64,000 nucleotides of DNA. Origin: a virus. Taxonomy: Duplodnaviria; Caudoviricetes. The position numbers were made by a program, and so were the translations under genes. The notes below the pieces were generated by a model. The model saw only the letters and a list, made by a program, of their open reading frames with translations, was not told the origin of the DNA and did not search any database. The DNA lies in the IMG/VR virus record IMGVR_UViG_3300047157_000186. One strand, 5' to 3'. This document shows, piece after piece, positions 23,171-59,865 of this stretch. Every line of letters starts with the position of its first letter. The first letter of the stretch is position 1.

Positions 23171-23404
23171 ATGGACAAGTTTAATGAAGAGCACATGCGT
23201 GCGTTAGAACAGAGATATAGTGAACTAGTTAATCCTAGAAAATTAATTGAGTATTTGTCTACTCCCGAGGAATTCGAAGATTGGGCAAGATTGGGAACAC
23301 CAAGCGATATTAGATCAGCCCTCATCGCATTTGAAAAAGAGGAATTATATGATCACTGTGCAATACTAAAGAAAGTATTGATTAGTATAGAATCAAATGA
23401 GTAG
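23171..23404 (+). CDS. Small protein with C-terminal UVR-like motif
   Basis: AFEKEELYDHCAIL. Confidence 0.55.
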   Translation: MDKFNEEHMRALEQRYSELVNPRKLIEYLSTPEEFEDWARLGTPSDIRSALIAFEKEELYDHCAILKKVLISIESNE

Positions 23405-24315
23405 TATAGAAGAACAATATCGTGGACTATTGGGTTCACTCTTACATAATTCAGTAAAAAAATCAGATCGCACTGGCACTGGAACACATTCTATTTTTGG
23501 AAGACAGATTAGACATGACATGAAACAAGGATTTCCTTTGTTAACTACTAAGCGTATGGCAGTCAAGACGATGATGACTGAATTAAAGTGGTTTCTTAAA
23601 GGTGATACTAATATTAAGTACCTTGTTGATAATGGGTGTAGCATTTGGAATGGTGATGCTTATAAAGCATTTAAGAGTACATTTTCGCCAATGCCCGGAA
23701 TTCAATCATCTTTACCCAGTCAAGATGAATTTATCAACAAAATCAAAACCGATAATGAGTTTGCTCAGAAGTGGGGTGAGTTAGGTCCTATTTATGGAAA
23801 GCAATGGAGAGGTTGGTTTGGTTATGATAAAAATGTAGATCCTGTTTTTGTAGATCAAATCGCAAACCTCATCGAAGAACTAAAAACAAATCCAGATTCT
23901 CGTAGACTTGATGGTTAATGCATGGAATGTTGGAGATTTACCAACTATGGCCCTTCCACCATGTCATTATGGATTTCAGTGTTACGTAAGAGATGGTAAA
24001 TATCTTTCATTAATGTGGAATCAAAGATCTGTAGATACTTTCTTAGGTCTTCCATTTAATATTGCTAGTTATGCGGCATTATTGTGTTTGATCGCAGAAG
24101 AAGTTAACATGATTCCAGATCAATTAATTGGAAACTTAGGTGATGTGCACTTATATTCTAATCATGTAGATCAAGCAATGGAACAGATTTCTAGAGAGAT
24201 TTATGATTTGCCTACTGTTTCATTTAAGAATGTAAATATATTAGATGGTGAATTTGATTACGAGGTACATGATTATAAATATCATCCAAGTATTAAAGCG
24301 CCATTAAGTAATTAA
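23397..24315 (+). CDS. thyA: Thymidylate synthase (split by a +1 nt indel near 23907)
   Basis: DRTGTGT, GFPLLTTK, ELKWFL, LGPIYGKQWR, PDSRR(L)MVNAWN, LPPCH, QRSVD.FLGLPFN, DVHLY.NH. One extra G in CTT-G-ATG. Confidence 0.92.
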
Positions 24316-24326
24316 ACTATAAAATT

Positions 24327-24425
24327 ATGAAAACTATTAAAAAAATATGGAACTATCTAATATGGTTAGAAGAGCAACGAATGAAAGCTGCAATCAAATC
24401 AGGAAGCGCTGGTCCATTAATGTAA
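24327..24425 (+). CDS. Possible 32-aa small protein
   Basis: MKTIKKIWNYLIWLEEQRMKAAIKSGSAGPLM with A-rich AAAATTATG start; read manually. Confidence 0.45.
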   Translation: MKTIKKIWNYLIWLEEQRMKAAIKSGSAGPLM

Positions 24426-24434
24426 TTTAAATTT

Positions 24435-24809
24435 ATGAAGATAGCATTAATAGCACACGATAATAAAAAAGCTGATATGGTCGCTTTTGTTTCTAAACGA
24501 TTACCATTCTTTAATAGAGAAGATGTTACGATTGTTACGACTGGTACAACTGGTAAACATTGTAAACATGCTGGCATCAAGAATTTAGAAACTGTATTAA
24601 GTGGACCATTAGGTGGTGACGCGCAGATTGCTGCAATGACAGTTGAAGGTAAAATAGATCTAGTTATTTTTATGAGAGATCCTTTAGATAAACATCCACA
24701 TGATGTAGATATTTCTATGTTGATGAGATTGTGTGATGTGCATAATATACCATTGGCTACAAATTACAAAACCGCAAGTTACTTAATTAAATACTTAAAA
24801 CAATCATGA
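24435..24809 (+). CDS. mgsA: Methylglyoxal synthase
   Basis: IALIAHD.KK, TGTTG, SGPLGGDAQI, FMRDP...HPHD.DI..L.R.CDV.NIPLATN. Confidence 0.92.
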   Translation: MKIALIAHDNKKADMVAFVSKRLPFFNREDVTIVTTGTTGKHCKHAGIKNLETVLSGPLGGDAQIAAMTVEGKIDLVIFMRDPLDKHPHDVDISMLMRLCDVHNIPLATNYKTASYLIKYLKQS

Positions 24810-25408
24810 AAAATAGTATCAAAGAACTTCTTAGGCTAGAAGTTGAAGCAATACAAAATATTCCAGTAAATGACTCGTTTGAGAACGCAGTGGATATAAT
24901 TAAGAATCATGTCCATTCGTCTGAAAAGAATGGGAAAGTAGTATTATCGGGAATGGGTAAAGCTGGTCAGATCGCATTGAATATCTCGACAACGCTTAGC
25001 TCTACAGGAACTCCATCGGTTTATTTACACCCAAGTGAAGCACAACATGGTGATTTAGGTATTTTATGCAAAGATGATGTATTAATATTATTGTCAAACT
25101 CTGGAAAAACTAGAGAAATATTAGAATTAATAATGTTATCTAGGATTTTGCACCCTGATGTTAAAGTCATTTCTATTACAGGAAAAACAAATAGTCCACT
25201 TGCAGAAAATTCAGATGTTGTATTACATACTGGAGATTCTGAAGAAATTTGCCCACTTGGATTAACGCCTACAATTTCAACAACACTGATGACAGTAATT
25301 GGTGATATGATTGTGGTTGAGCTTATGAAAAAAATCGGCTTCACTAAAAAAGAATATTCTAAAAGACATCATAGTGGGTATTTAGGTCAAAAAAGCAAAG
25401 AGCAATGA
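24806..25408 (+). CDS. kdsD: Arabinose-5-phosphate isomerase (SIS domain only, KdsD/GutQ family)
   Basis: GMGKAGQIA, LHPSEAQHGDLG, SNSGKTRE, E.CPLGLTPT.STT, H..G.LG. Confidence 0.85.
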   Translation: MKNSIKELLRLEVEAIQNIPVNDSFENAVDIIKNHVHSSEKNGKVVLSGMGKAGQIALNISTTLSSTGTPSVYLHPSEAQHGDLGILCKDDVLILLSNSGKTREILELIMLSRILHPDVKVISITGKTNSPLAENSDVVLHTGDSEEICPLGLTPTISTTLMTVIGDMIVVELMKKIGFTKKEYSKRHHSGYLGQKSKEQ

Positions 25409-25698
25409 AAGAGCAATATCCTAAATTAAATAAATTATTAAAGATATTTACGGTAGATAAAAAACTATCTCCATTAGAAAGACTTGCAAATAGATTAGCA
25501 TACGCTGGAACAACGCTTATTATAATTTCACCATATCTATTGAAGTATGACGATATTGGAGCATACACATATATCTTAGGTGGAATACTATCAATTCCAC
25601 AAGTATGGATTGCAAAACAATGGAACGTAGTTATTATTCACTCTAATTTAGTTTTTGGATATGGACTTTATATTTTAAGAAATACAATATGGCTATAG
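25405..25698 (+). CDS. Small membrane protein
   Basis: Three hydrophobic segments; overlapping start/stop coupling. Confidence 0.6.
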   Translation: MKEQYPKLNKLLKIFTVDKKLSPLERLANRLAYAGTTLIIISPYLLKYDDIGAYTYILGGILSIPQVWIAKQWNVVIIHSNLVFGYGLYILRNTIWL

Positions 25699-26030
25699 AA
25701 GAAAGACCGTGGGGAGAGTATGAAGTTATTTTAGATGCACCTGATGTAAAAATAAAACTAATAGAAGTTGCACCTAAACAAAGAATGTCATATCAATATC
25801 ATGAAAAACGGGCCGAAGTATGGACAATAATTCATGGAACATTAACCATTATACTAAATGATGAAACATTATACAGAGGTCCTGGACAATCAATCAAAAT
25901 TCCATTAGGTGCAAAACACAGAGCATGGAATAATACTGATTTGCCAGTTCATTTTGTTGAAGTTCAAACGGGAACTTATTTTGGTGAAGATGACATAATT
26001 AGAATTGAAGACGATTATAAAAGAATATAA
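25689..26030 (+). CDS. Cupin, mannose-6-phosphate isomerase type II C-terminal-like
   Basis: ERPWG.Y, SYQYHEKRAEVW, HR..N, EVQTG.YFGEDDI.R.EDDY. Confidence 0.85.
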   Translation: MAIEERPWGEYEVILDAPDVKIKLIEVAPKQRMSYQYHEKRAEVWTIIHGTLTIILNDETLYRGPGQSIKIPLGAKHRAWNNTDLPVHFVEVQTGTYFGEDDIIRIEDDYKRI

Positions 26031-26735
26031 ATGAAATCACTTGTAATAATTCCAGCGAGATGGAACTCGACCAGATTTCCAGGAAAACCATTAGAATTAA
26101 TAGGTGAAAAACCTATGATTCAACATGTTTGGGAAAAAGCATCAAGATCAAATGCTGATGAGGTGTGGATTGCAACAGATGATCAAAGAATATTTGACTG
26201 TGCTAAATCATTTGGAGCCGAAGTTATGATGACTACTAATTGTGATACCGGGACTGACAGAGTTATTGAAGTTCAACAAACATTAGGTAGTGATATAGTG
26301 GTAAATGTACAAGGTGATGAGCCATTTATAAATCCAAAAGATATTGATCACGTTATTAGTTTGATAAAATCAAATCCTACAAATACTGTAGCCACATTAA
26401 AATCAGATCTAATAGAAAACGAAGCAAACGATAAAAACACAGTTAAGATTATGTCAAATCATGATTCAGGTTCAGTGATAGAGTTTACAAGAAATAATGT
26501 AAATGGAAAATCATGGTTTAAACATATAGGAATTTATGGATATTCCTCCAATGTATTAGATAAAATTGCAATATTGTACCCTACAGAAAACGCGATAAAT
26601 AAATCATTAGAGCAATTGACGTGGATGGAGAATGAAATAGAAATGGTTGCAGGATATACAACATATAAATCATTTGGTATTGACACGCCATCAGATCTAA
26701 AACGAGCAAATAATTTTTTAAAATCAAATAAATGA
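26031..26735 (+). CDS. kdsB: CMP-Kdo synthetase (3-deoxy-manno-octulosonate cytidylyltransferase)
   Basis: IIPARWNSTRFPGKPL, ATDD.RI, GTDR, VNVQGDEP, KHIGIYGY, SLEQL, IDTP.DL. Confidence 0.85.
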   Translation: MKSLVIIPARWNSTRFPGKPLELIGEKPMIQHVWEKASRSNADEVWIATDDQRIFDCAKSFGAEVMMTTNCDTGTDRVIEVQQTLGSDIVVNVQGDEPFINPKDIDHVISLIKSNPTNTVATLKSDLIENEANDKNTVKIMSNHDSGSVIEFTRNNVNGKSWFKHIGIYGYSSNVLDKIAILYPTENAINKSLEQLTWMENEIEMVAGYTTYKSFGIDTPSDLKRANNFLKSNK

Positions 26736-27298
26736 TATTACCAACTATTGAACACACTTCGCCATCTTTTATTATGGCATATCAAATGGATGAAAAAATA
26801 TGTGACATGATTGTCGATAATTTTGACGATCTTCCTAAACTTACTAACTTTGATGATTTACGAGGATATCACAGGTTATCAAATGGTAACTTAGATCCAG
26901 ATATTTTAGAAGAATATATGTCTAAAGTTAATGAAGCATTTAAGGCATATATAAAAGAATATGAATGGTGTAATATCATGACAACTCAATGGAGTTTCTT
27001 TCCTCCATTCAATATACAGAAATATGAACCTGGGCAAGCATATAATCCAACACACATAGAATGCGGTGGCCCAAGAAAGGGTAAAATACAAAGAAAACTA
27101 GCATTCACAACATATCTCAATGATGTTGAAGAAGGTGGAGAAACTGAATTTGTATTACAAGGAATAAAAGTAAAACCAAAAAAAGGACTTACAATTATTT
27201 GGCCAGCAGGTTGGACACATCCTCATCATGGACTTCCAGCACCTAATGAAATCAAGTATATCGCTACTGGTTGGGCAGGATATCACCATAGAGACTAA
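26732..27298 (+). CDS. 2OG-Fe(II) oxygenase (P4H-like superfamily)
   Basis: IQKY, HxE, YLNDVEEGGETEF, WPA.WTH.H, KYIATGW. Confidence 0.8.
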   Translation: MILPTIEHTSPSFIMAYQMDEKICDMIVDNFDDLPKLTNFDDLRGYHRLSNGNLDPDILEEYMSKVNEAFKAYIKEYEWCNIMTTQWSFFPPFNIQKYEPGQAYNPTHIECGGPRKGKIQRKLAFTTYLNDVEEGGETEFVLQGIKVKPKKGLTIIWPAGWTHPHHGLPAPNEIKYIATGWAGYHHRD

Positions 27299-27304
27299 TA
27301 CTTT

Positions 27305-27760
27305 ATGAAGTTCAAAAAATTAACAGGACCACCTAAATTTGAACTTGCACCTTACGTTAAAGAATTTATTGAAAACAACAAAGGATTCGATATGAAAATA
27401 TATTTAGGGTGTGATAGTCAAAATAAGGCTATTAAAACAGTGTATGCAACTACATTAGTTTTTCATGTTGCGTCAGCAGGATGCCACGTGATATATAAAA
27501 AGGAGGAGGTTCCAATTATAAAAGATATGTGGACTAGATTGTGGAAAGAAACTGAAAAATCATGTGAAGTAGCTCTTTATTTAAGAGAACATGGCATAGA
27601 AGTTTCTACTATAGATTTAGATTATAATACAGATCCACAGAAAAAATCAAATAAATTAGTTAAAGCTGCAGTTGGATATGTTGAGTCGATGGGATTCAAA
27701 GCTAGATGTAAGCCCGATCTTTTACCTGGAGTTTATGCTGCAGATAATATCGTAAACTAA
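27305..27760 (+). CDS. YkuK/DUF458 RNase H-like protein
   Basis: [12 protein letters not shown]...S, IDLDYN, AAD motifs. Confidence 0.7.
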
Positions 27761-27804
27761 TTTTAATAAATACATATAAGAATAGTAAAACAAATATACA
27801 ATAT

Positions 27805-29848
27805 ATGTCATTAGCAGACGGATACGAAAACGAGAAAAATAGAAAAGGAAGTTCAAAGAAAAAAACTACTCCATTCTTAGATGAATTTGGGGAAGATTTA
27901 ACTTTGGCAGCATCTGAAGGTAAATTAGACCCGATTATCGGGAGAGATAAAGAGATTTATAGAATTTGCCAGATATTAGCTCGTAGAAAGAAAAATAATC
28001 CTATTATATTAGGTGACCCAGGAGTTGGTAAAACTGCAATTGTTGAAGCAATTGCTCAACGAATTATTGATAAGAAAGTTGCAAGAGTTTTGATAAACAA
28101 ACGACTTATCTCTATCAACATGACAACTATTGTTGCAGGAACCAAATATCGTGGAGAATTTGAAGAGAGAATGAAAAACATTGTCGAAGAACTTAAAAAC
28201 AATGACAATATTATTGTATTCATCGATGAATTACACACTATTGTTGGTGCAGGTGGAGTGAGTGGTGCATTAGATGCATCAAACATTCTTAAACCAGCTT
28301 TAGCAAGAGGACAAGTTCAATGTATCGGTGCAACAACATTAGATGAATATAGAGAAAACGTTGAAGATGATGGAGCACTTACTCGTAGATTCCAAGAAGT
28401 GTTTGTAGACGCACCATCAGTAGATGATACTATTAATATATTAATGCGTATCAAACATAACTACGAAGAATATCACTCTGTAGAATACACAGATGAAGCA
28501 ATTGACGCATGTGTTAGAATGAGTGATCGTTACATTAAACAACGTGAATTACCTGATAAAGCTATTGATTTATTAGATGAGGCTGGAGCAAGAACACATT
28601 TATTAGAAGTTAAAGTTCCTTCAAGAATCAAAACACTTGAGAAGCAAGCTGAAGAAATAAAATCAGAAAAGAAAGCTGCAGTTGAAAAACAAGATTATGA
28701 AGTTGCAGCGAGACTTAGAGATGATCAAATTTCTATAGAAAGCAGAATATTAAGTGAGACTAAAGATTGGGAAGAATCTCTTAAGAAATCAAAAAGACAA
28801 ATTAATATTTCAGACATAGCTGAAACTATTTCAACACAAACAGGAATTCCTGTTAATAAATTAGGAACTGATGATCTTAAGATGATTAAAGCAATGTCTT
28901 CAGAAATCAAGAATATGATTATCGGCCAAGACAGAGCAGTAGATGCATTATGTAAAGTAATTAAAAGATCTAGAACTGGAGTTGCAAGTCACAAAAAACC
29001 AAGTGGTTCATTTATGTTTTTAGGTCCAACTGGTGTTGGTAAAACTGAAACAGTCAAAGCCCTAGCAGAATATATGTTCGGAGATACTGATGCAATGATT
29101 AGAATTGATATGTCAGAGTATCAAGAAAAGTTTAATGTATCTAGATTGATTGGAGCTCCTCCGGGATATGTAGGTCATGAAGATGGTGGTCAATTAACTG
29201 AAGCAGTAAGACGTAAACCTTATTCTGTAGTCTTATTCGATGAGGTTGAAAAAGCACACCCAGATATTTTCAATACTTGCTTCAAGTCTTAGATGAAGGT
29301 AGATTAACAGATTCTAATGGTAGAGTTGTAGACTTTACAATACACTATCATTGTAATGACATCTAATGTTGGTGCAAGAAAGGTTGCAGACTTTGGAACT
29401 GGTATTGGATTCTCAACCTCAAATCTAATGTTGCAGAAGACAAGCAAAAAGATGGATGGTATTATTAAGAAAGAATTAAAGAATAAATTTAGTCCTGAAT
29501 TTTTAAATAGATTAGATGATATTATTTTATTTGACCAATTACAATCTGAGACATTTTAAAAATTGTAGATATTGAACTTAATAATTTTATTGAAAGAATG
29601 TCAATAGAAGATTATACATTTAAGTTTCTAAACCAGCAAAAGATTTTTAGCTAAAAGAAGGTTACGATCAAGCATATGGTGCAAGACCCATTAAAAGAGC
29701 TATTCAAAGATATGTTGAAGATATAGTTGCTGATGCAATACTAGATGCTTTGACAAAAGGTAAAGAATATACTATTACAAAAAACAAAGACGAAGATAAA
29801 CTAACTTTAGTAAATTATCATATAATAACTACTATAAACACAAGGTAA
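27805..29848 (+). CDS. clpC: ClpC/ClpB-type AAA+ chaperone lacking the N-domain, with UVR M-domain; C-terminal part broken by several indels (29277-29660)
   Basis: Walker A GDPGVGKT and GPTGVGKT; IDELH; [11 protein letters not shown]; [11 protein letters not shown]; RIDMSEY; GYVG; PEFLNRLD; YGARP. The end coordinate depends on manual frame correction. Confidence 0.85.
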
Positions 29849-30703
29849 ATGACAGACTTTTCAAAAACATTCAAAGAACTAATAACACAAATTGATATAC
29901 ACGGCGATGTATCGAAACCAAGAGATTTAGAAGTTAAAGAACTTCTTCTAAATAGAGTTGATATAAATCCAACAAAACCTATTGCTCATTTTGAAGCAAG
30001 ATCTTTTAATTGGAAATACTTTGCAGGTGAAATGGCATGGTATTTACACAGAGATACAGATGTAGATTATATAGGTCAATACTCTGGAATGTGGTCTACA
30101 TTAACAAATCCAGGTACTAATGAAATCAATTCAAATTATGGTGCATTAGTTCTTAATACAGAACAAATAGGTTGGGTTGTAGATTCACTTTTAGCCGATG
30201 ACAATAGTCGTCAAGCTATTATGTTTTTTAATCAACCTAAGTTTCAATTTAAAGGCAATAAAGATTTCGTATGTACAATGTATGCAAACTTTTTTATTAG
30301 AAATAATAAATTAAACATGAAAATACAAATGAGATCTAATGATATATTTTATGGTCTTACTTTTGATGCACCGTTCTTTTCATTTTTAATGCAATCAGTT
30401 TATTTGATTCTTAAAAAACATGACAAATACAAAGATTTAGAGTTAGGTACATATCATCACTTTGCAGATAACATTCATTTTTATGAAAGACATTTTGAAT
30501 TAGCAAAGAAAATTAAATCTGAAGATGATGCACTAGAATCTAATATTAATACATTAATTTTAGAAAAACCATTAGTAGATTATAATGGCACAGATGTGTT
30601 CTTAACCGATGAAGGTCTCGAGTTTACACAAAGATTAGATCAAGCACAAGGATCAAAAGAAGTTAATTACAAAAACATTTTAAAAGATTATTTTACAATA
30701 TAA
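29849..30703 (+). CDS. Thymidylate-synthase-family dCMP hydroxymethylase-like enzyme (T4 gp42-like)
   Basis: INSNYG, DFVCT, MRSND, and Asp (GLTFD) at the position that is Asn (GLPFN) in ThyA. Confidence 0.72.
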   Translation: MTDFSKTFKELITQIDIHGDVSKPRDLEVKELLLNRVDINPTKPIAHFEARSFNWKYFAGEMAWYLHRDTDVDYIGQYSGMWSTLTNPGTNEINSNYGALVLNTEQIGWVVDSLLADDNSRQAIMFFNQPKFQFKGNKDFVCTMYANFFIRNNKLNMKIQMRSNDIFYGLTFDAPFFSFLMQSVYLILKKHDKYKDLELGTYHHFADNIHFYERHFELAKKIKSEDDALESNINTLILEKPLVDYNGTDVFLTDEGLEFTQRLDQAQGSKEVNYKNILKDYFTI

Positions 30704-30704
30704 T

Positions 30705-31010
30705 ATGGAACCACCTAAAATATACATAGATCCTCAGAGAATTCTGGCAGAAGATTTTGAAAAGGTTTTGATTTCTAAATATGATATATTTTACAGGCGT
30801 ATTGTCGAATATATACTAAACATAATAGAAAACAAAGAAGAATCTAATATACTAGCAATTCTTGTAGATGATGAAGGTAGAGAATATGATATGACATTAC
30901 CAAGAGATGGTTACGAGAAATCATTATTCAAAGCTAAAGAATACTTTACAATGATAGAAGAATATGAGACGTGTGATCTAATTAAACAAATACAAAAACA
31001 AATAGCTTAA
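30705..31010 (+). CDS. Hypothetical protein with C-terminal UVR-like motif
   Basis: YFTMIEEYETCDLI. Confidence 0.6.
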   Translation: MEPPKIYIDPQRILAEDFEKVLISKYDIFYRRIVEYILNIIENKEESNILAILVDDEGREYDMTLPRDGYEKSLFKAKEYFTMIEEYETCDLIKQIQKQIA

Positions 31011-31699
31011 TGAATTACTACCCAAATGATAAAGAATTTCAAAGATTTGCAAAATCTGAGTTTAATATAAGTGGATCTCACATAGATCGGTTTTCTAAAC
31101 ATGTTGAAAAACAAAACTCAATGACGCCATATATTCTTGAAGAAAGAGAAATGAGAGTTACTCAAATGGATATATTTTCTAGATTGATGGCCGATAGATT
31201 ATTGTGGGTTGCAGGTCCAGTTAATGATGCTATGAGTACTGTTGTTCAAGCACAATTAATGTTTCTATCTAATAATGCAGCAGATGATATCACAATGCAT
31301 ATTGATTCTCCAGGTGGATCAGTTAAATCAGGATTATCTATGGTGGACGTGATGGAATATATACCTTGTGATATACGTACAGTTAACACTGGAATGGCAG
31401 CTTCAATGGGATCAGTATTATTAGGAGCTGGAACAAAGGGTAAAAGAGCGTCACTTAGACACTCAACTACAATGTTACATCAATCTTCAGGAGGATTCAG
31501 TGGAAATATTCAAGACGCTGAGGTTGATTGGGCAGAGTGGAAAAAAGTAAATGTAGAATTATTTAATTTACTAGGAGAGTATTGCGGAAAGAAACCAGAA
31601 AGAGTAATGAAAGATGCAACACGTGATTTTTGGTTAAATGCAGAAGAAGCAGTTAAGTATGGAATCATAGACGAAATCATAAAACCAAAACAAAGTTAA
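31010..31699 (+). CDS. clpP: ATP-dependent Clp protease proteolytic subunit
   Basis: MDIFSRL, IDSPGGSV, AASMGS (catalytic Ser), MLHQ, RD.WL.AEEA..YG.ID. Confidence 0.92.
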   Translation: MNYYPNDKEFQRFAKSEFNISGSHIDRFSKHVEKQNSMTPYILEEREMRVTQMDIFSRLMADRLLWVAGPVNDAMSTVVQAQLMFLSNNAADDITMHIDSPGGSVKSGLSMVDVMEYIPCDIRTVNTGMAASMGSVLLGAGTKGKRASLRHSTTMLHQSSGGFSGNIQDAEVDWAEWKKVNVELFNLLGEYCGKKPERVMKDATRDFWLNAEEAVKYGIIDEIIKPKQS

Positions 31700-31709
31700 T
31701 ATATAGATT

Positions 31710-32033
31710 ATGGCGAGTAGACAAAAAACTAAAGAAGTGTTTATTGAGTTGATTAATTTACAACTAAAACCACATGGTAAAACATATAAAGATGTTGTTA
31801 AAGAAAACGACTGGTATATGAAGTATAATACTACTAGAGAAAAGGAAGCATTGTTTATTAAAGAAGCAACTAAAATACTTAAAACAAAATTAAGAATGAG
31901 TAAAGCAGTTGCTGAAAAAGAAATCAGTTGGTTTATTTTACAGTGGGGATTAACTACAAATGCTGAAAATTATTCTGAAGAAACAACATTAGTAAAATCA
32001 AAATCTAAAAACACTAGAAAGAAGAGTAAATAA
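31710..32033 (+). CDS. Hypothetical basic protein
   Basis: ORF track. Confidence 0.65.
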   Translation: MASRQKTKEVFIELINLQLKPHGKTYKDVVKENDWYMKYNTTREKEALFIKEATKILKTKLRMSKAVAEKEISWFILQWGLTTNAENYSEETTLVKSKSKNTRKKSK

Positions 32034-32052
32034 TATAGGAATATTATAATAT

Positions 32053-32091
32053 AAAAAAAGGACATTATTAATTAAGATAATGTCCTTTTTT
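32053..32091 (+). terminator. Rho-independent terminator (bidirectional-type)
   Basis: AAAAAAAGGACATTAT ... ATAATGTCCTTTTTT. Confidence 0.75.
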
Positions 32092-40772: not shown

Positions 40773-40775
40773 CAT

Positions 40776-51683: not shown

Positions 51684-51693
51684 ATTATAAATT

Positions 51694-51720
51694 AAACCTA
51701 CACTCGTGTGGGTTTTTTTT
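51694..51720 (+). terminator. Rho-independent terminator
   Basis: AAACCTACA-CTCG-TGTGGGTTT followed by a T-run. Confidence 0.6.
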
Positions 51721-51732
51721 GCTACATTAATA

Positions 51733-52752
51733 ATGAGAATATTATTTTATGCGGGCTATCAAAAGAATAAATTTGATGGTGATACAAATGAAGGATTAGC
51801 AGGAACTGAAATTGCTATAATTAATATAGCCGAAGAGATGGTTAAATTTGGTTATAAGGTTGTGGTTTCTGGTGAAGTAAAAGATTCTGGTTTAATTAAT
51901 GGAGTAGAATGGATATCAACACATGAATTACATGAAAAATATTTTGATCAGTTTGATTATATTATATCTGCAAGTTATATTCATTTTTTAAAAGAGTTTG
52001 AAAAATATTCAGCAAAGAAAGTATTTTGGGCACATAATACACATCATCACCCATGGTGGAATCACGAAGTGTTAGAAGACGCAAACCTTTTAACACAACA
52101 AGTTGATCATACAATTTGTTTGACTAATTGGCATAAGAATCACTGGGCACATACATATAATATACCTTTAAATAAAATCTCGGTGATTGGTAATGCCATT
52201 GATCCTTCAACATTTAGTGGTACTCCTGAAAAAGTTAAAGGTAAATTCATATATAGTTCTGCACCCGAACGTGGCTTATTGGAATTATTAAAAAACTGGC
52301 CAAAGATAAAAACTATAATGCCACATGCAACACTAGACATTTATTCTCCTGGATATTCTATAGCAAATCATACTGACTATTCATTTAATAAGTTTAAAGA
52401 AGTAACATGTCACGGTAGTGTAGATCAAAAAACATTACATAATGCCATGCTACGTGCAGAATATTGGTGTTATATAACTGATTATGAAGAAACATATTGT
52501 ATAACTGCACTTGAAATGCAATATGCCAAAGTATTACCTATTGTTACTAAAGTTGCTGCATTAAAAGAAACTGTAAATAGTGGAGTTATCTTAGAAAGAA
52601 ATGAAACAAATTGGAATCAGGCTATACAAATACTAGGTACACTAAGTAGTGGACTTAAGGATAAATCAATTAATGATGCATATAAATGGTCTAAACAACA
52701 AACATGGAATGTTAGATCATATGATTGGAAAAACATATTAGAATCTATATGA
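51733..52752 (+). CDS. GT4-family (GT-B) glycosyltransferase
   Basis: GLAGTE, IGNAID, YSSAPERGL, ETYCI.ALE.Q. Start moved to ATG 51733 because the tracked GTG lies inside the terminator. Confidence 0.8.
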   Translation: MRILFYAGYQKNKFDGDTNEGLAGTEIAIINIAEEMVKFGYKVVVSGEVKDSGLINGVEWISTHELHEKYFDQFDYIISASYIHFLKEFEKYSAKKVFWAHNTHHHPWWNHEVLEDANLLTQQVDHTICLTNWHKNHWAHTYNIPLNKISVIGNAIDPSTFSGTPEKVKGKFIYSSAPERGLLELLKNWPKIKTIMPHATLDIYSPGYSIANHTDYSFNKFKEVTCHGSVDQKTLHNAMLRAEYWCYITDYEETYCITALEMQYAKVLPIVTKVAALKETVNSGVILERNETNWNQAIQILGTLSSGLKDKSINDAYKWSKQQTWNVRSYDWKNILESI

Positions 52753-54083
52753 AAATAGATAAAATTTATATTATAAGCTTGAACGCTGGAGATCCAAGCA
52801 TTCAAAGAAGTATTGCCGAGAGGGTAGATCAACTTGGTATGCCATATTCTGTAGCGTGGGAAATAGTTCAAGGTTTTGATGGAACTTCAGGCAATTTATT
52901 AGATGGACACAGTGTATATAATTTATGGAATTTAGGATCTGATTCATGGAATGATTGGTGGAAAAGAGATGTTACTGGCGGAGAAGCAGGTTGTGCAATT
53001 AGTCACTTAAATATATGGAAAAATATAATAGAAGACAATATCAATTGTGCATTAATACTAGAAGATGATTTTGTTTCAGTAGCTCCACTTACAAATCCAG
53101 TTATTCCAAACACAGAATGGGATATTGCATTTTTAGGTAGAAATGCTATATGTCCTAAGGATGAAAAAAGAATTGATGTAAGTAATAAATGGGTAACAGC
53201 ACTTAGTAGTTATAATACACATGCATATGTAATTAAAAGAGACGCTGCGAAAACGCTAGTCAATGATTACAACTTTCAACAAAATCTAATTGCGCCCGAT
53301 GAATTCTTAACGGCAACATATACAGATCATAGAAGACAAGATATTAATATACTGTTTCCACCAAAACTTAAAGCGATAGCTCCAGTTAATAATTGGATAG
53401 AACAAAATAGACCACACGAAAAATCCACGACAGAACCAAATGATGCCAATATTAATTTATTGAAAAAACAACCTTATTTCGAAATACTAGATGACAGTGA
53501 TTGGGATTCATGGAAATCAAAGTATGTAAACGAAACAGTGGCTAAGGGTGAATATGATTTAATGATAGATGATATAGGAAATAATATATATGAATTTCCA
53601 TTATTTACCGAAAAGTTCTGTAAAGAAGCAGTTGCTTTAGCAGAGGTTATGAATAAGTGGACAAAAGATAGACATGAATTTTATCCAACAAATGATGTCT
53701 TATTACCAGAAATAGGATTAGATAATATTTATAATAGAGTTATAAAAGAAATAGTTTCCCCACTTTGTATACATTTATGGGAATTAGAAGGTGCAGGTTG
53801 GGATAATATGAATACCGAAAACTTTATGGTAAGATATACTACTGATAGACAATCTCATTTAAGTTTACATCATGACTTTAGTCATATTACAATGGTAGTA
53901 AAATTAAATGATGAGTTTGATGGTGGCGGCACGTGGTTTCCAAAATATAAAATATTAGCAAATCCAAAATTAGTAGGTACTGCAACTATTCACCCTGGAA
54001 TGATCACACATAAACATGGTGCCAGACCAATACATAGTGGGAAAAGATACATCAACGTATCATTTATGAGAAAGAATAATTAA
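52749..54083 (+). CDS. Fusion of GT25 (collagen/LOS galactosyltransferase-like) and PLOD-type lysyl hydroxylase domain
   Basis: N: IYIISL, GEAGCAISH..IW, LILEDD, HAYVI. C: FPLFTEKFC, PTND, NFMVRY, SLHHD, GGGTWF, HPG.ITH.H, GKRYI.VSF. Confidence 0.8.
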   Translation: MKIDKIYIISLNAGDPSIQRSIAERVDQLGMPYSVAWEIVQGFDGTSGNLLDGHSVYNLWNLGSDSWNDWWKRDVTGGEAGCAISHLNIWKNIIEDNINCALILEDDFVSVAPLTNPVIPNTEWDIAFLGRNAICPKDEKRIDVSNKWVTALSSYNTHAYVIKRDAAKTLVNDYNFQQNLIAPDEFLTATYTDHRRQDINILFPPKLKAIAPVNNWIEQNRPHEKSTTEPNDANINLLKKQPYFEILDDSDWDSWKSKYVNETVAKGEYDLMIDDIGNNIYEFPLFTEKFCKEAVALAEVMNKWTKDRHEFYPTNDVLLPEIGLDNIYNRVIKEIVSPLCIHLWELEGAGWDNMNTENFMVRYTTDRQSHLSLHHDFSHITMVVKLNDEFDGGGTWFPKYKILANPKLVGTATIHPGMITHKHGARPIHSGKRYINVSFMRKNN

Positions 54084-54097
54084 CAAAACAAAACAAT

Positions 54098-54526
54098 ATG
54101 AAAAAAGAGATTACGTTTAACGAGATCATTGGAGATGACGGGCATTTAGTGTCACCTGTCTTAAAAAATGGCGCTAAGAATTATTTAATTGATATTGACG
54201 GTACAATTACTGATGATGTACCAAATGAAGAACCAGAAAGAATGTCAGTAGTTTTACCATATACTGGTGCTGTAGAAACACTTAACAGATGGTTTGACGA
54301 AGGACATGTAGTTACATTCTTTACATCAAGAACCGAAGAAGTTAGAGATATCACAGAAACTTGGCTAAATAAACATGGTTTTAAATATCATGGTCTATTA
54401 ATGGGTAAACCAAGAGGTGGAAATTATCATTGGGTTGATAACCACATTGTCAAGGGTACAAGATATGAAGGTAAGTGGGCAGATTTAGTTAGAGAAGAAA
54501 GAACGATAGAAGTGTTTCCTTCGTAG
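54098..54526 (+). CDS. Small HAD-superfamily phosphatase
   Basis: IDIDGT, FTSR, GKP, VD. Confidence 0.75.
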   Translation: MKKEITFNEIIGDDGHLVSPVLKNGAKNYLIDIDGTITDDVPNEEPERMSVVLPYTGAVETLNRWFDEGHVVTFFTSRTEEVRDITETWLNKHGFKYHGLLMGKPRGGNYHWVDNHIVKGTRYEGKWADLVREERTIEVFPS

Positions 54527-54537
54527 ATATATATTAA

Positions 54538-55470
54538 ATGAGAAGCATATACACATTTGAAGATTTTCTTTTAGAAGCTGATGAAACTGATCAGCTTAAA
54601 AAAATCTGTATCGCAGTTTCTGTAGAAATGCCAGATAATAAGTATGTATATGATTCTAAATATAACGTCTCTAAGGTATTTGAATTATTAGATAAAAATA
54701 AAAAAGCAGAACCTTCTGAAACACCAGTTCTTAATTATGCCAATTGGAAAATTGAGAAAATGATAAAAGACGGATGGGATTCTAAATTTATTTATAATTC
54801 AATTGAAGCTAAACAAAGAGTTTCTTCCAAAGTAAAATGGTGCAAAACTCATGAAGAATCTGAGCATACACCTAAAGTAGTTTTTGATAAATCAAATTTA
54901 AAAGAACTTAAATATCCTATCATAGCTAAACCAGATAATAGATATAGTGGACAGGGTATTATGGTTTTTAAAGAAGAAAAGGATTTAGAAGGTGTTGATT
55001 TAGATCAGTTTTCAGTTTTCTCAGAAAAGATAAATATCGTAGATGAACTTAGAATTTATTGTTGGAAAGGAAAACCTTTGATGCTAGTACATAGAGTGCC
55101 TGCAAATGAAGAAACAAAAAATCTATCTAAAAAAGCAGATGATAAACTGGTATTTAATTACGAATTATCAAAGTCACCTATAACAGAAAATTTAGTTAGT
55201 GTTGTTGAAGAATTTTCAAAAGAACATAATGATTTAGATTTTTATTCGGTAGATATTGTTATAGATGATAAAGATCATCCTTATGTTATTGAAATGTCAT
55301 CAGAACCTGGACCAGTTTTCGGTGTTATGGGACATGTATATAAAGAAATGTATAAGGACTATTATGGAGAAGATGTTTCGGATAAAACTAATAAAATAAT
55401 TGACGCTTATATAGAAGAGGACATTAATACAACGATTGCTTCAGATGAATCTAGATTCAAAAGAAGATAA
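54538..55470 (+). CDS. ATP-grasp (RimK-like) protein with N-terminal TFEDFLLE motif
   Basis: PIIAKP...SGQGI, E.RIY, YSVD, VIEM.S.PG. Confidence 0.65.
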   Translation: MRSIYTFEDFLLEADETDQLKKICIAVSVEMPDNKYVYDSKYNVSKVFELLDKNKKAEPSETPVLNYANWKIEKMIKDGWDSKFIYNSIEAKQRVSSKVKWCKTHEESEHTPKVVFDKSNLKELKYPIIAKPDNRYSGQGIMVFKEEKDLEGVDLDQFSVFSEKINIVDELRIYCWKGKPLMLVHRVPANEETKNLSKKADDKLVFNYELSKSPITENLVSVVEEFSKEHNDLDFYSVDIVIDDKDHPYVIEMSSEPGPVFGVMGHVYKEMYKDYYGEDVSDKTNKIIDAYIEEDINTTIASDESRFKRR

Positions 55471-55515
55471 ATCGAATAAATAAAAAGATAAATAGAAAGA
55501 ATTAAAAATAGAATT

Positions 55516-55758
55516 ATGGCAGAACCTAATATGAACTGTATGATTATTAATGTGTGGATACATCACATGCAAATAGATGAACTATTCGATTTCTTGAATA
55601 TGAGAATAGATCGTGCACCATTTTATTGGTTAAATGAAGCATCAGTGCCTACATCAATCACGGGTGGTTATGTTATGATTTCGTTAACTTATGATTCTTA
55701 TTCTCATTTATCTTCTAACAGAAACTGGGACGAAGCTCCTGGTTGGATAAAACAATAA
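55516..55758 (+). CDS. Hypothetical protein
   Basis: ORF track. Confidence 0.6.
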   Translation: MAEPNMNCMIINVWIHHMQIDELFDFLNMRIDRAPFYWLNEASVPTSITGGYVMISLTYDSYSHLSSNRNWDEAPGWIKQ

Positions 55759-55759
55759 T

Positions 55760-55870
55760 ATGAAAAAACAAACAAACATGAAAGCGTTTCTTTTAAATTA
55801 TAAAGGAACGAAGTACAAAGCGAACACCCTTATTGGTGTTATTTGGAAGTTTATTACTAAGAAGAAATAA
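55760..55870 (+). CDS. Possible 36-aa basic protein
   Basis: Manually read ORF directly after the previous stop. Confidence 0.35.
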   Translation: MKKQTNMKAFLLNYKGTKYKANTLIGVIWKFITKKK

Positions 55871-55896
55871 ACAAATCCTAAAAAGAGAGTATAAAG

Positions 55897-55924
55897 AACG
55901 TCTAGATTAATCTAGGCGTTTTTT
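55897..55924 (+). terminator. Rho-independent terminator
   Basis: AACGTCTAGA...TCTAGGCGTT followed by TTTT. Confidence 0.65.
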
Positions 55925-55941
55925 AGGATTAAAACAAATAT

Positions 55942-56685
55942 ATGTATACACTAAGCGAACTTCAACAGATGATCTTCATTGACATCGAAACTAGTACACA
56001 AAAAGAAACATTCCAGGAGATCATAGATGATAACCCTGCTCTTGAAGAGTATTGGAATATAAAATCTACGCAACTTATTGAAAGTCAGCCAGAAACTCTT
56101 AAAGACTTTACTGATCCACATAAAATGTGGTCTCGTATGGCAGGACTTTATCCAGAATGGGGTAAAATAGTTTGTATTTCTGTAGGTCAATTAAAGTTTG
56201 ATGAGACTGGATTTCCTAATGACTTTAAAGCAATGTCATTTAGTGGAACAGATGAGGCTCAGGTTCTTAAAGACTTTTCACAAACTGCTGCCAAGATTAT
56301 GCAGAAATATCCTAAAATGAAATGGGTCGGCCATAATATTAAAGGATTTGATTTACCTTATATTATTAAGAGATCATTAATCAATGAGATACAGGTTCCT
56401 TCTGCATTTCATTTACACAAACAAAAACCATGGGAAAACTGTTTACTAGACACACAAGATGTTTGGAAATTTGGCGGATGGAACTCTGCTAAATTAGGTT
56501 TAATTTCAGAACTCTTAGGTATTCCATCTCCTAAAGATGCAATGTCAGGTCCAGAAGTAAATGAATATTATTGGAACGATAGGTTAGAAGAAATAAAAAC
56601 ATATTGTGAAAAAGATATTCAAGCGACCGCTAACATTATGTTAAAAATGAGTGGTATGCCAATTATAGAAGCTCTTCCATTTTAA
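55942..56685 (+). CDS. 3'-5' exonuclease, PolB/DnaQ-like standalone
   Basis: FIDIET, GKIVCIS, GHNIKGFDLPY, DT..VW, YCE.D. Confidence 0.85.
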   Translation: MYTLSELQQMIFIDIETSTQKETFQEIIDDNPALEEYWNIKSTQLIESQPETLKDFTDPHKMWSRMAGLYPEWGKIVCISVGQLKFDETGFPNDFKAMSFSGTDEAQVLKDFSQTAAKIMQKYPKMKWVGHNIKGFDLPYIIKRSLINEIQVPSAFHLHKQKPWENCLLDTQDVWKFGGWNSAKLGLISELLGIPSPKDAMSGPEVNEYYWNDRLEEIKTYCEKDIQATANIMLKMSGMPIIEALPF

Positions 56686-56703
56686 AATGACAACATGTCA
56701 TTT
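56685..56703. promoter_or_regulatory. Inverted repeat upstream of Hsp20 (possible operator)
   Basis: AAATGACA-ACA-TGTCATTT. Confidence 0.5.
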
Positions 56704-56808
56704 AATTTGTAAAATATATGACACTAAGTCTTAATGCTTAGTTTGGTATAATATTTTCAGTATACTATACGAGCACGTTGCTCAAATAATTATAAAAAAA
56801 ATTAAACT

Positions 56809-57168
56809 ATGTTTTACACAACAAACGACCACATTGACAACATTTTCAGGGGAATACAAGAACCTCTATGGAAAACTGGAAAATTAATAAGCGATCATCT
56901 TACTGATTTTCATTACGAAGACGGAGTATTTACTATGGCACTTCCTGGATTTTCTAAAAAAGATTTAGACATTGAAATGGAAGGATCTACATTAAAGATC
57001 TCTGCAGACATTAAAGAAAAAGATGAAACGCTATATAAGAAATCATTTGAAAAGAAATTTAGAGCATCTAATATTGATGTTGAAAGTGTTACAGCAAACA
57101 TGTCAGACGGTATCCTAACTATTATGTTAGATAAGAAAGTTAATCCAAAGAAGATTAAAGTAATATAA
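56809..57168 (+). CDS. Small heat-shock protein (Hsp20)
   Basis: ALPGF.K.D..IE.EG..L.IS, F...F, A.M.DGIL.I.L.K. Confidence 0.85.
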   Translation: MFYTTNDHIDNIFRGIQEPLWKTGKLISDHLTDFHYEDGVFTMALPGFSKKDLDIEMEGSTLKISADIKEKDETLYKKSFEKKFRASNIDVESVTANMSDGILTIMLDKKVNPKKIKVI

Positions 57169-57170
57169 TT

Positions 57171-57195
57171 AAAGCGGCTTATGCCGCTTTTTTTT
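57171..57195 (+). terminator. Rho-independent terminator
   Basis: AAAGCGGC-TTAT-GCCGCTTT plus T-run. Confidence 0.9.
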
Positions 57196-57220
57196 GAAAA
57201 TAAATCACCCAGATTTTTTT

Positions 57221-57252
57221 ATGTCATTTATTTGTGGTATATTAGCAGTATA
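57221..57252 (+). promoter_or_regulatory. Repeated early promoter, copy 7
   Basis: ATGTCATTTATTTGTGGTATATTAGCAGTATA. Confidence 0.8.
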
Positions 57253-57268
57253 ATTAAACACATAAGAT

Positions 57269-57463
57269 ATGATAAATTTAGATTACGCTAAGATTAGCGA
57301 CGTAGAAGTAGACGGAATAGACACCGCAGATTATCCAGATTTTTGTGATGCATTTATTGCATACGCAGAATATGATGGTAAAGAAATGACAGATGAACAA
57401 TTAGATGCGTTAAACGAAGACGGCGATTTTGTTTATGAAGCTGTACAAAATTATTTATTTTAA
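57269..57463 (+). CDS. Small acidic hypothetical early protein
   Basis: ORF immediately downstream of the promoter. Confidence 0.7.
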   Translation: MINLDYAKISDVEVDGIDTADYPDFCDAFIAYAEYDGKEMTDEQLDALNEDGDFVYEAVQNYLF

Positions 57464-57473
57464 TATATAATAC

Positions 57474-57785
57474 ATGAAAGAAGACGATTTCAATTTTGAT
57501 GAATTTATGGAAAATAGCAATAGTGATTTCGAAATGAAACTTGAAGAATACAAGGATCGTATGATTCGATTAGCTATTGAAACTAATTATGCACAAATAG
57601 AAAAGAACGGTATTAATGATTGGCATCTTAGGCATATGGATCCTGCAGAATTAATTTCATTAAACGGAACTTTTAAAATGATGCTTGATTATTTTGAAGA
57701 AAATGAAGAGTACGAGAAGTGTGCTAATATCATGAAACAATTAAATACTATAGATTCTATTATGTCTCCAAAGCGAGATATATAA
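57474..57785 (+). CDS. Hypothetical protein with C-terminal UVR-like motif
   Basis: YFEENEEYEKCANI. Confidence 0.65.
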   Translation: MKEDDFNFDEFMENSNSDFEMKLEEYKDRMIRLAIETNYAQIEKNGINDWHLRHMDPAELISLNGTFKMMLDYFEENEEYEKCANIMKQLNTIDSIMSPKRDI

Positions 57786-57788
57786 AGT

Positions 57789-58046
57789 ATGAAGTATATA
57801 AAATTATTTGAAGAGGATAGGGTAGATCTTAAAAACGAAAATCCTCTTTTAATTAAAATAAGGCATTTTGGTGGAAGTGTTAAAAGCCTAGATGATTGGT
57901 TACGATCAAAGATAGGTGAAACAAATCCGTACAAAGACACTATAATGGTAAACGGTCCACATATGGGAAAGAAAGATAAATCTTTGCCATATCAAGATTT
58001 CCAAAATGGAGAATCGGATTTAGTAAAGAATAATCATGGAAGATAA
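57789..58046 (+). CDS. Hypothetical protein with N-terminal IKLFEE motif
   Basis: MKYIKLFEED. Confidence 0.55.
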   Translation: MKYIKLFEEDRVDLKNENPLLIKIRHFGGSVKSLDDWLRSKIGETNPYKDTIMVNGPHMGKKDKSLPYQDFQNGESDLVKNNHGR

Positions 58047-58266
58047 AATAGCAAAAGAAATAGCGGTTCAATTAAAAAGAATAGCAGACGCATTAGAAAA
58101 ATCTAATAAAAATTCAGAAACATCTGAAAAAAGAAATGCTGTTATTGGTAAACTTCAAGAAAAAAATCTAAAAGCAGATCTAAGAGAAAAACTTAATTTA
58201 GATCAAGCAGATTACACGCCACATCCTAATTCTCCTAGATTTAAAACAGATGATGGATCCTTATAG
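58036..58266 (+). CDS. Hypothetical protein
   Basis: ORF track; overlaps its neighbours. Confidence 0.6.
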   Translation: MEDKIAKEIAVQLKRIADALEKSNKNSETSEKRNAVIGKLQEKNLKADLREKLNLDQADYTPHPNSPRFKTDDGSL

Positions 58267-59056
58267 TGTATTAGGTGTCGATAAAACATCTTCACAAGAT
58301 GACATTAAAAAAGCATATAGGAAACTAGCCAAAGAATATCATCCTGATAAAAACGATGGCAATGACGAAAGATTTAAAGAGATTGCTGACGCTTATGAAA
58401 AAATAGGCGATGATTCTTCGAGGCAAAAATATGACTCAGCTTCTAACTTTCAAAATTTTAACGGATTTGGTGATGGAAATATTAACATGTCAGATCTTTT
58501 TGATCAAGTATTTGGTAATGCATTTGGATCCAGACAATCATCTAAGGGCCAAGATTTAAGATTAGATTTACATTTAAGTTTTGATGAAGCTTACGCTGGA
58601 ACTTCTAAAAAGTTTGCAGTTAATGGTCAAGATATTAAAGTTGATTTTAAAGCTGGACTTAAAACAGGAATGAAACTAAGAGTCGCAGGAAAGGGACAAC
58701 CTCATCAATATAATTCTACACTACCAAACGGCGATCTAATTATTCACATACATGTGATGCATAATAGTAATTGGATTTTACAAGACAATGATATTTGGTT
58801 AGATTTAAATTTATCATGGGAAGATATATTTTTAGGAACTAAAATAAATGTAAATACACCTGAAGGTCCACTTTATATTAATGTACCTAAGAATAGTTAT
58901 CCTGGAAAAGTTCTTAGAATCAGAGATCGAGGATATCCAATATATGGCACCGAAAAAAAAGGTGCACTTTTATGTAAATTAAATGCTTCTTATTTTGAAC
59001 TTAATTCCGAACAACTGGAATATATAAAGAAAGTAAAGAGCATAAAAGATGAATGA
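58250..59056 (+). CDS. dnaJ: DnaJ-class co-chaperone (J domain plus C-domain, no Zn finger; CbpA-like)
   Basis: DPY.VLGV...IKKAYRKLA.EYHPDKN; G.KLRV.GKG; GDL.I.I. Confidence 0.9.
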   Translation: MMDPYSVLGVDKTSSQDDIKKAYRKLAKEYHPDKNDGNDERFKEIADAYEKIGDDSSRQKYDSASNFQNFNGFGDGNINMSDLFDQVFGNAFGSRQSSKGQDLRLDLHLSFDEAYAGTSKKFAVNGQDIKVDFKAGLKTGMKLRVAGKGQPHQYNSTLPNGDLIIHIHVMHNSNWILQDNDIWLDLNLSWEDIFLGTKINVNTPEGPLYINVPKNSYPGKVLRIRDRGYPIYGTEKKGALLCKLNASYFELNSEQLEYIKKVKSIKDE

Positions 59057-59312
59057 TTACACATTTAGCGACGATAGTAAAAAATGGTTTAGAATATTCG
59101 ATGGACTCATAGTTAATAATGAGGACATGTTTTTCAATGCATTGTATATGGCCATCACACATCATCCAACTTATGTAATTGCTTCAGATTTAGAAGACGA
59201 GCGCAAGATCACTATTTTAGGTGCAATGTTAAAGCACTTTGAAGAAAAAGAAGAATTCGAAAAATGCGCCAGTATTTATAACATTAAAAAACAGATTAAA
59301 ACAATATGCTAA
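59049..59312 (+). CDS. Hypothetical protein with C-terminal UVR-like motif
   Basis: HFEEKEEFEKCASI. Confidence 0.65.
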   Translation: MNDYTFSDDSKKWFRIFDGLIVNNEDMFFNALYMAITHHPTYVIASDLEDERKITILGAMLKHFEEKEEFEKCASIYNIKKQIKTIC

Positions 59313-59491
59313 TAATAGAAGTAGATAAGGGAAATATAGAGAAGGCACTGAAACAATATAAAAGAAAGGTTAGAAATACTAAACAAATAAATCACTTAAG
59401 AGATCAACAAGATTTCACCAAGCCATCAGCAAAGAAACGTCTTAAGATGCAAAAAGCCAAGTACTTACAATCTAAAAATCAACCGGAATGA
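59306..59491 (+). CDS. rpsU: Ribosomal protein bS21
   Basis: MLIIEV..GNIEKALK.YKRK...K....LR..Q.F.KPS.K.R, the Bacteroidota-type bS21 signature. Confidence 0.88.
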   Translation: MLIIEVDKGNIEKALKQYKRKVRNTKQINHLRDQQDFTKPSAKKRLKMQKAKYLQSKNQPE

Positions 59492-59604
59492 TATATTAAT
59501 AAATTATCCTAATATATTGATTCAATTTCTATATTAGGTAAATCGTATATTAATATATACAAAGGAGCAACTAAGTTGCAACTAAAAACAAAAGGTAATT
59601 TAAG

Positions 59605-59865
59605 ATGGCAGGCTTTATTTCAAGTTCAGATAAAGATAGTTTGATGAGAGCTAGTTATTACCAGATAACTAGAAATTTTACTAAGACAGTAAATAGATTC
59701 ATCGCATTCAAGGATACAGATCGTATCGTTGAAATTCCTCATGGAATAAAACAGCGTTCTAAATTTATTGACCTAATGATCAAATACTTCGAATCATTAG
59801 AAGAGTACGAAAAATGTACTAAGCTGGTAAAACTAAAAGAACTTGTCATAATGGCAGGGGATTAA
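59605..59865 (+). CDS. Hypothetical protein with C-terminal UVR-like motif
   Basis: YFESLEEYEKCTKL. Confidence 0.65.
   Translation: MAGFISSSDKDSLMRASYYQITRNFTKTVNRFIAFKDTDRIVEIPHGIKQRSKFIDLMIKYFESLEEYEKCTKLVKLKELVIMAGD

Follow-up and report, generated by a model that had tools for sequence, protein, structure and literature searches.

Small phage proteins with a common UVR-like C-terminal hairpin and the linkage of one subfamily with clpC and clpP

The UVR motif of UvrB and UvrC is a helical hairpin, which is also found in the M-domain of ClpC and in McsA. ClpC normally needs adaptors which grip its N-domain, and many large phages carry a ClpC without this domain. The sequence under study here is a 64,000-nucleotide stretch (the window) of a large uncultured marine phage with a G+C content of 34.8% (IMG/VR record IMGVR_UViG_3300047157_000186), in which five small open reading frames (ORFs), named here by their first positions (23171, 30705, 57474, 59049 and 59605), end in a common Cys-containing motif. 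ORF 30705 is located between the clpC and clpP genes of the phage. This hairpin protein, together with an independent tandem-UVR protein encoded next to clpC in other phages, bears on how an N-less phage ClpC may be activated or targeted.

As in the UVR motif of UvrB/UvrC, the ClpC M-domain and McsA, the common part of these proteins is a predicted antiparallel helical hairpin of ~33 residues, but it forms the C-terminal tail of very small proteins which are viral wherever the taxa are known. In Arabidopsis, CLPC1 traps enrich for the UVR-domain proteins EXE1, EXE2, UVR2-4 and CLPF (PMC8889267). These plastid CLPC1 associates likewise join unrelated other domains to a common UVR-type motif, the same logic as in the proposed set of phage adaptors, although their UVR motifs are canonical, their association was measured by trapping and their CLPC1 has an N-domain. 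SPO1 Gp53 is a phage adaptor-like protein which acts on ClpC (PMC6873191) and resembles the role proposed for the ORF 30705 protein, that of a phage protein modulating the ClpC-ClpP protease. This 25 kDa protein, however, acts on the full-length ClpC of the host, whereas the ClpC considered here is phage-encoded and without an N-domain, and the two are likened by role and not by sequence. In an unrelated phage lineage, the minus strand of another stretch (L054:9357-9761) encodes a 134-amino-acid protein whose two canonical UVR motifs score 31.4 and 28.6 bits; its gene is divergent from a clpC without an N-domain (L054:9950-11965) and separated from it by 188 bp, and the same arrangement occurs in G064. 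Such tandem proteins are likewise small phage-only UVR-type proteins next to an N-less ClpC, but their two Ala/Ser-type UVR motifs with Arg-Asp and their head-to-head gene arrangement place them outside the Cys-type family. A conserved genomic linkage with clpC/clpP, taken as a mark of ClpC adaptors or regulators of the MecA, McsA/McsB and CLPF type, is found for the 30705 subfamily only, and is absent from the family at large and from the other four copies in the window.

The Cys-type hairpin family and the UVR motif

The five ORFs, all on the plus strand (Table 1), have unrelated N-termini and a common motif in their last ~30 residues, as the preliminary description of this stretch had noted. 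The pattern F/Y-x3-E-x-[YF]-[ED]-x-C-x2-[LIV], composed after inspection of the five copies, occurs five times in the six-frame translation of the window, whereas 200 shuffles gave 0.01 occurrences on average and one at most. Profiles built with one subfamily left out at a time recover four of the five, namely 57474 (E 1.4e-7), 59049 (E 6e-6), 59605 (E 8e-6) and 30705 (E 2e-4), and these four score 44-48 bits against a 33-column motif profile, with the match at the C-terminus of a protein of 40-180 amino acids. ORF 23171 is not recovered by the profile built without its own subfamily and scores 13.7 bits, in register, against a profile of 150 representatives (E 0.012 among 6066 ORFs); because of this weak recovery it is treated as a marginal member, while the other four are certain members of one family. 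A search for a sixth copy within the window found none. When the profiles of the 30705 and 57474 families are compared with each other, an alignment is obtained over the C-terminal 44 columns only (probability 90.5%, E 1.4e-6) and none over the N-terminal parts. ORF 57474 has 24 orthologues with 57-97% identity, conserved over their full length, and ORF 23171 is 99-100% conserved in G001, a relative 95% identical to the window. From the Cys onwards, the window copies read C-A-N-I-M-K, C-A-S-I-Y-N, C-T-K-L-V-K, C-D-L-I-K-Q and C-A-I-L-K-K.

Among 1.84 billion representatives, the 33-column profile detects 438 clusters (50% identity) at E <= 1e-3, nearly all of which are proteins of 40-150 amino acids that carry the motif C-terminally. 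None of the 146 matched segments lacks E18, E21 or C23, and 143 have Y20. The DNA pattern for F-x3-EEYEKC occurs in more than 120 IMG/VR stretches, with a true member at the match in 79 of the 80 loci fetched, and the nearest ESM Atlas clusters are 100% viral. The family is viral wherever the taxa are known, and the only part common to its members is the C-terminal hairpin of ~33 residues. One member carries an LPD38 polyvalent-protein domain. PHROGs contains no significant match to the family, searches of the cultured-phage records (INPHARED), by megablast with the ClpC region and by tblastn with three family members, gave no match or one weak match, and a literature search on the motif string returned no relevant paper. 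Described below are the bridge to the UVR family PF02151, the subfamily-specific synteny with ClpC and ClpP, the two-way co-occurrence test and the broken ClpC. The family with its invariant E-x-Y-E-x-C hairpin comprises hundreds of clusters, and finding its partner would annotate a common part of the viral dark matter.

An AlphaFold2 model of the 57474 protein, based on an alignment of its orthologues, is all-helical (pLDDT, the predicted local distance difference test, 86), with the hairpin formed by helices 57-76 and 80-101. In that of the 30705 protein (pLDDT 85), the hairpin helices (67-83 and 87-100) come after a small alpha/beta part. Both hairpins have a pLDDT above 90 and turn at the x-E-E triplet which immediately precedes Y-E-x-C. 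The common C-terminal segment is thus confidently predicted to be an antiparallel helix-turn-helix hairpin, with its turn just before a [FY]-E-x-A-type segment, and the two models bear out the earlier suggestion that the motif folds as a hairpin in the style of UVR.

The spacing of hydrophobic residues in the family is the same as in UVR (-16, -12, -9, -3, 0, +3, +7 and +10 relative to the Cys/Ala position), and an acidic turn followed by [YF]-E is likewise retained. Sister members which have every hallmark of the family but read C-A/S-x-x-R-D match PF02151 in the same register; one of them (L097:552-890) scores 21.6 bits (E 1.8e-4), compared to the curated cut-off of 21.5 bits, and three further such members score ~17 bits, also in register. 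Overall, five of 135 family representatives match PF02151, and in the Atlas clusters near the 30705 protein 13-57% of the members carry PF02151. The family nevertheless departs from UVR in that Cys replaces the first Ala of the Ala-Ala pair and Phe the helix-1 Ala nine residues upstream. The Arg-Asp after the Cys/Ala position is usually absent, and none of the window copies has the signature A-A-x-[LF]-R-D.

A number of search results count against a UVR assignment and the ClpC contact that it would suggest. The PF02151 search, which the preliminary description had proposed as a check, did not pick out the paralogues: the five window ORFs have no match at E <= 1, 25 motif segments have none even at E <= 10, and ClpC is the sole match in G001. 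The motif profile retrieved no UvrB, UvrC or ClpC and nothing relevant from the PDB sequences, and none of these three proteins occurs among its best 150 matches in the 1.84 billion representatives. When aligned by hhalign to 52 phage ClpC UVR segments, the profile places columns 17-29 on columns 17-29 (P 0.017), an agreement in register which counts for a link to UVR, but at a probability of only 2.7%, which counts against it. Foldseek searches of the PDB with the 57474 and 30705 models and a wide VIA-align search with the latter gave generic hairpins and three-helix bundles (E > 0.2, Z <= 5.6). UvrB and the ClpC M-domain are absent among the matches shown, and the fold is too small for this to carry weight either way. 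Our reading is that the hairpin represents a divergent, Cys-type UVR, related to PF02151 and not a member of it as Pfam defines the family. The earlier description of the five ORFs as UVR proteins is retained as far as the in-register bridge through members passing PF02151 is concerned, and is not retained for the five themselves, none of which passes and which have Cys/Phe for Ala and no Arg-Asp. Matches of 19 representatives to DHR-2_Lobe_A (at most 18 bits, with a cut-off of 26) were judged to be compositional and rejected.

The clpC-clpP block and the occurrence of ClpC

The features of ClpC as a class I Hsp100 protein with a ClpP-docking loop are present in the intact 671-amino-acid orthologue of G001 (P0025), which has two AAA modules, a UVR-type M-domain (PF02151, 30.7 bits) and the IGF loop (as GIGF), and which lacks the N-domain that is optional in this class. 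In the window, the Pfam UVR match covers residues 279-312 of ClpC (25.7 bits), and the protein starts 44 residues before the first AAA module, so that there is no room for an N-domain. The claim that the phage encodes a ClpC with a UVR-type M-domain and without an N-domain is therefore upheld. Relatives of this ClpC occur in more than 590 IMG/VR stretches, some of them full-length and some without the N-domain.

The block order clpC, thymidylate synthase (TS)-family gene, 30705-type ORF and clpP is found in all 23 close ClpC loci. When loci were retrieved via the ORF itself, independently of ClpC, the same block was present in ~70 of 74, with ORF identities of 28-99%; the four exceptions, which have no Clp gene at all, match only marginally and belong to another subfamily. 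The TAA stop codon of ORF 30705 overlaps the ATG of clpP (TAATG), and the 30705-type ORF abuts or overlaps clpP in most relatives, with an insert of ~875 bp between the two in one subclade. One 59.9-kb phage fragment has kept ClpC and the 30705-type ORF, with no clpP anywhere on the contig, and two more distant ClpC phages encode a family member on the strand of clpC, 1-2.5 kb downstream of it. A predicted complex of the intact G001 ClpC with the 30705 protein scored 0.31, relative to a mark of 0.32 and to controls of 0.00-0.01, and is counted neither for nor against an interaction.

The clpC gene of the window is not intact, which corrects the preliminary description. After codon 495 there are at least four frame changes, and compared to G001 the region 29277-29804 contains ~nine indels which are not multiples of three, with an identity of 89.5%, compared to ~99% on either side. 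In four public runs, three of DNA and one of an RNA library, the contigs agree near-perfectly with the flanking sequence and all depart from the window within 29050-29900; they have several indels in common with G001 (29341, 29418/29420 and 29629) and carry an intact, G001-like form of clpC. The RNA-library contig (run X15) spans 29277-31100, which is no proof of transcription. A second record with interrupted block genes is that of another relative (L210:2062-4966), in which clpC is divided into two ORFs and so is the TS-family gene. Either the clpC of the window has decayed in this particular strain, or the assembly is faulty in a stretch which varies between strains.

Beyond the block, the occurrence of the family and of ClpC across phages speaks against a general partnership between them. 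Three complete ClpC-bearing phage genomes (G008, G011 and G016) have no family member; at least two of their ClpCs look full-length rather than N-less, as judged by their ORF starts. Conversely, four of five near-complete phages with a family member have no ClpC (G024, G026, G036 and G038). In the phage stretch L083, clpC, an MGS-like gene and clpP follow one another without a family member between them. Gene order is strongly conserved among T4-like phages in general, and because the functionally unrelated TS-family gene has its place in the same block, synteny alone is weak evidence of a partnership. In the window record, furthermore, the broken clpC stands beside an intact clpP and five intact small ORFs. 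As a whole, the family is not a ClpC accessory, nor is it tied to ClpC in either direction. The earlier proposal of a private family of ClpC adaptors holds in so far as ORF 30705 is fixed in the clpC-clpP block, and falls short for the other four copies, which have no Clp linkage, and for the family, which is found without ClpC just as ClpC is found without it. The 57474, 59049 and 59605 copies instead lie in one gene string with Hsp20, DnaJ, ribosomal protein S21 and PhoH behind a promoter-like repeat, a context which recurs in close relatives only.

Possible roles of the hairpin proteins

The best explanation overall, to which we give about an even chance, is that a docking hairpin is carried on variable heads, with the 30705 subfamily acting as a cofactor of ClpC-ClpP and the other copies having other partners. 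The Cys-type hairpin would serve all of the paralogues for docking on other proteins, and each would owe its particular function to an N-terminal part unrelated to the others. The 30705 protein, translationally coupled to clpP, would most likely work with the N-less ClpC-ClpP as a cofactor, be it an activator, an adaptor or a regulator, and its contact may be made through the UVR-type M-domain of ClpC. The other four copies are not specifically tied to ClpC; candidate partners are each other, DnaJ/Hsp20-related clients and UVR-bearing proteins of the host. The family, its modelled fold, its link to PF02151 and the gene order are results of the analysis, and every binding step of this explanation is an inference. 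Taken by itself, the suggestion that the 30705 subfamily serves the phage ClpC-ClpP is tentative and has somewhat less than an even chance. A broader principle may also be considered, in which N-less phage ClpCs are controlled or aimed independently of an N-domain, by small UVR-type hairpin proteins docking on the M-domain. It would have arisen at least twice, once with the Cys-type hairpin protein between clpC and clpP and once with the tandem canonical-UVR proteins beside clpC in other phages, and the wider Cys-hairpin family would supply docking tools for UVR-type coiled coils in phage or host proteins. This broader principle is unlikely on present evidence.

Instead of a docking module for other proteins, the hairpin may be a self-association or structural module which stabilises or dimerises unrelated small early phage proteins, in the manner of the C-terminal domain of UvrB, which dimerises; the position of ORF 30705 would then be a frozen T4-like gene order. 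The spread of the family over hundreds of clusters, which differ widely in N-termini and in genome context, the member fused to the LPD38 domain, the presence of the family in phages without ClpC and the unrelated TS-family gene inside the same conserved block are all consistent with this. The co-varying Phe/Cys pair, which replaces the Ala/Ala pair of UVR that we take to be its helix-packing pair, likewise points to a structural role for the Cys. A frozen gene order accords poorly, however, with a coupling to clpP which persists down to 28% protein identity, with the retention of the ORF alongside ClpC in a genome which has lost the neighbouring clpP, and with the recurrence of a second, unrelated UVR protein beside an N-less ClpC. 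The invariance of E18, E21 and C23 (with Y20 in 143/146) is also stricter than packing alone usually demands, and a self-association or structural role is, all in all, rather unlikely. The same invariant residues might be seen as a metal-binding or redox-sensing site, perhaps formed across a dimer, which would be the real function of the family: the Cys is found in 146 of 146 segments, as are E18 and E21, and Y20 is almost as constant. The lone Cys nevertheless occupies the buried packing-Ala position of UVR, there is no further conserved Cys or His that could serve as a ligand, and the searches gave no pointer to a metal or redox family, which makes such a site highly improbable.

The preliminary description had gone further in proposing that all five proteins are interchangeable adaptors which dock on the ClpC M-domain and each deliver a different host protein to a private phage ClpCP. 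A common hairpin joined to unrelated N-termini speaks for such a model, as does a ClpC without an N-domain which has kept the UVR M-domain and IGF loop. The copies occur amid genes of proteostasis (DnaJ, Hsp20 and ClpP), and the close-clade genomes searched each hold 3-5 copies (a single copy in one fragment) together with ClpC and ClpP, the relatives used for genome-wide counts being G001-G006 and G018-G022. Plant UVR proteins furthermore co-purify with CLPC1 (PMC8889267). The model nevertheless appears improbable in the face of a family which is untied from ClpC in both directions, a clpC/clpP linkage restricted to the 30705 subfamily, and a ClpC which is frameshifted in the window record where the five ORFs are ~99% conserved. 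The hairpins could, alternatively, be mimics of host UVR domains and serve as takeover factors on host UvrB/UvrC, in nucleotide excision repair, or on host ClpC. Members do occur in phages without a ClpC of their own, UvrB and UvrC pair via their UVR domains (PMC8889267), and the 57474-59865 string follows the early-type promoter-like repeat. The profile, on the other hand, has no detectable similarity to UvrB or UvrC in the PDB sequences or among its best 150 representatives, and a scan with the CMP-KDO synthetase gave no host signal, its best bacterial matches being 34-43% identical and spread over many phyla. As the linkage of the 30705 subfamily with ClpC and ClpP would also be left unexplained, mimicry of host domains is considered quite improbable.

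Gene neighbourhoods and other features of the window

The coordinates of the hairpin ORFs, of the clpC-clpP block and of the genes and repeats around the other copies are collected in Table 1.

Table 1. Features of the 64,000-nucleotide window. Positions count from its first nucleotide.
Feature	Position	Strand	Remarks
Hairpin ORF 23171	23171-23404	+	77 amino acids; marginal member; overlaps thyA start by 8 nucleotides
ClpC, first 495 codons	27805..29292	+	AAA-1, UVR-type M-domain, start of AAA-2; Pfam AAA, AAA_lid_9, AAA_2, UVR
Rest of clpC, including IGF loop	29250..29850	+	Three frames; ~nine indels not multiples of three
Divergent TS-family gene	29849..30703	+	PF00303, 67 bits; between clpC and ORF 30705
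Hairpin ORF 30705	30705-31010	+	101 amino acids; ClpC/ClpP-linked subfamily; predicted alpha/beta N-terminal part and C-terminal hairpin
ClpP	31010..31699	+	229 amino acids, ~35-residue N-terminal extension; PF00574, 191.9 bits; GxAASMG, MLHQ and RDFW motifs in translation
Promoter-like repeat	57191..57276	+	Extended TATAAT box; upstream of the 57474/59049/59605 gene string
Hairpin ORF 57474	57474-57785	+	103 amino acids; predicted all-helical
DnaJ	58250-59056		Pfam
Hairpin ORF 59049	59049-59312	+	87 amino acids; overlaps dnaJ end and S21 gene start
Ribosomal protein S21	59306-59491		PF01165, 50 bits
Hairpin ORF 59605	59605-59865	+	86 amino acids; directly upstream of phoH
PhoH	59885-60592		
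Other repeat copies	17894-17988, 20736-20832, 21446-21544	-	Upstream of gene strings
Other repeat copies	62090-62178, 63118-63217, 63804-63891	+	Upstream of gene strings

Directly upstream of clpC, a sugar-metabolism run (24435-27298) encodes MGS-like and SIS-domain proteins, a mannose-6-phosphate isomerase-type cupin, a CMP-KDO-synthetase-like cytidylyltransferase and a 2OG-Fe(II) oxygenase. The TS-family gene of the block is intact and may be of the dCMP hydroxymethylase type. A canonical thyA (23397-24315) is split by a 1-nucleotide insertion at 23910 relative to G001, with its 3' half more divergent (90-97% identity). The region 21700-22900 is a 1.2-kb ORF-poor stretch with 46-57% G+C in a genome of 35% G+C and with many small indels compared to G001; ARAGORN detected no tRNA and Rfam no family in it, and it may be a site of structured RNAs.

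In the gene string downstream, the end of ORF 59049 is overlapped by the S21 gene and ORF 59049 itself overlaps the end of dnaJ, such that the three genes look translationally coupled. The seven window copies of the repeat are conserved intergenic elements of ~60-90 bp ending in GTATATTAGTAGTATAAT. The element resembles an early-type phage promoter whose upstream part is conserved, the early-promoter label being drawn from the consensus only. Compared to the window junction near 57189-57258, G001 has ~2 kb of extra DNA (7680-9780) at the repeat upstream of the 57269 and 57474 genes, which represents an insertion or deletion at a repeat copy.

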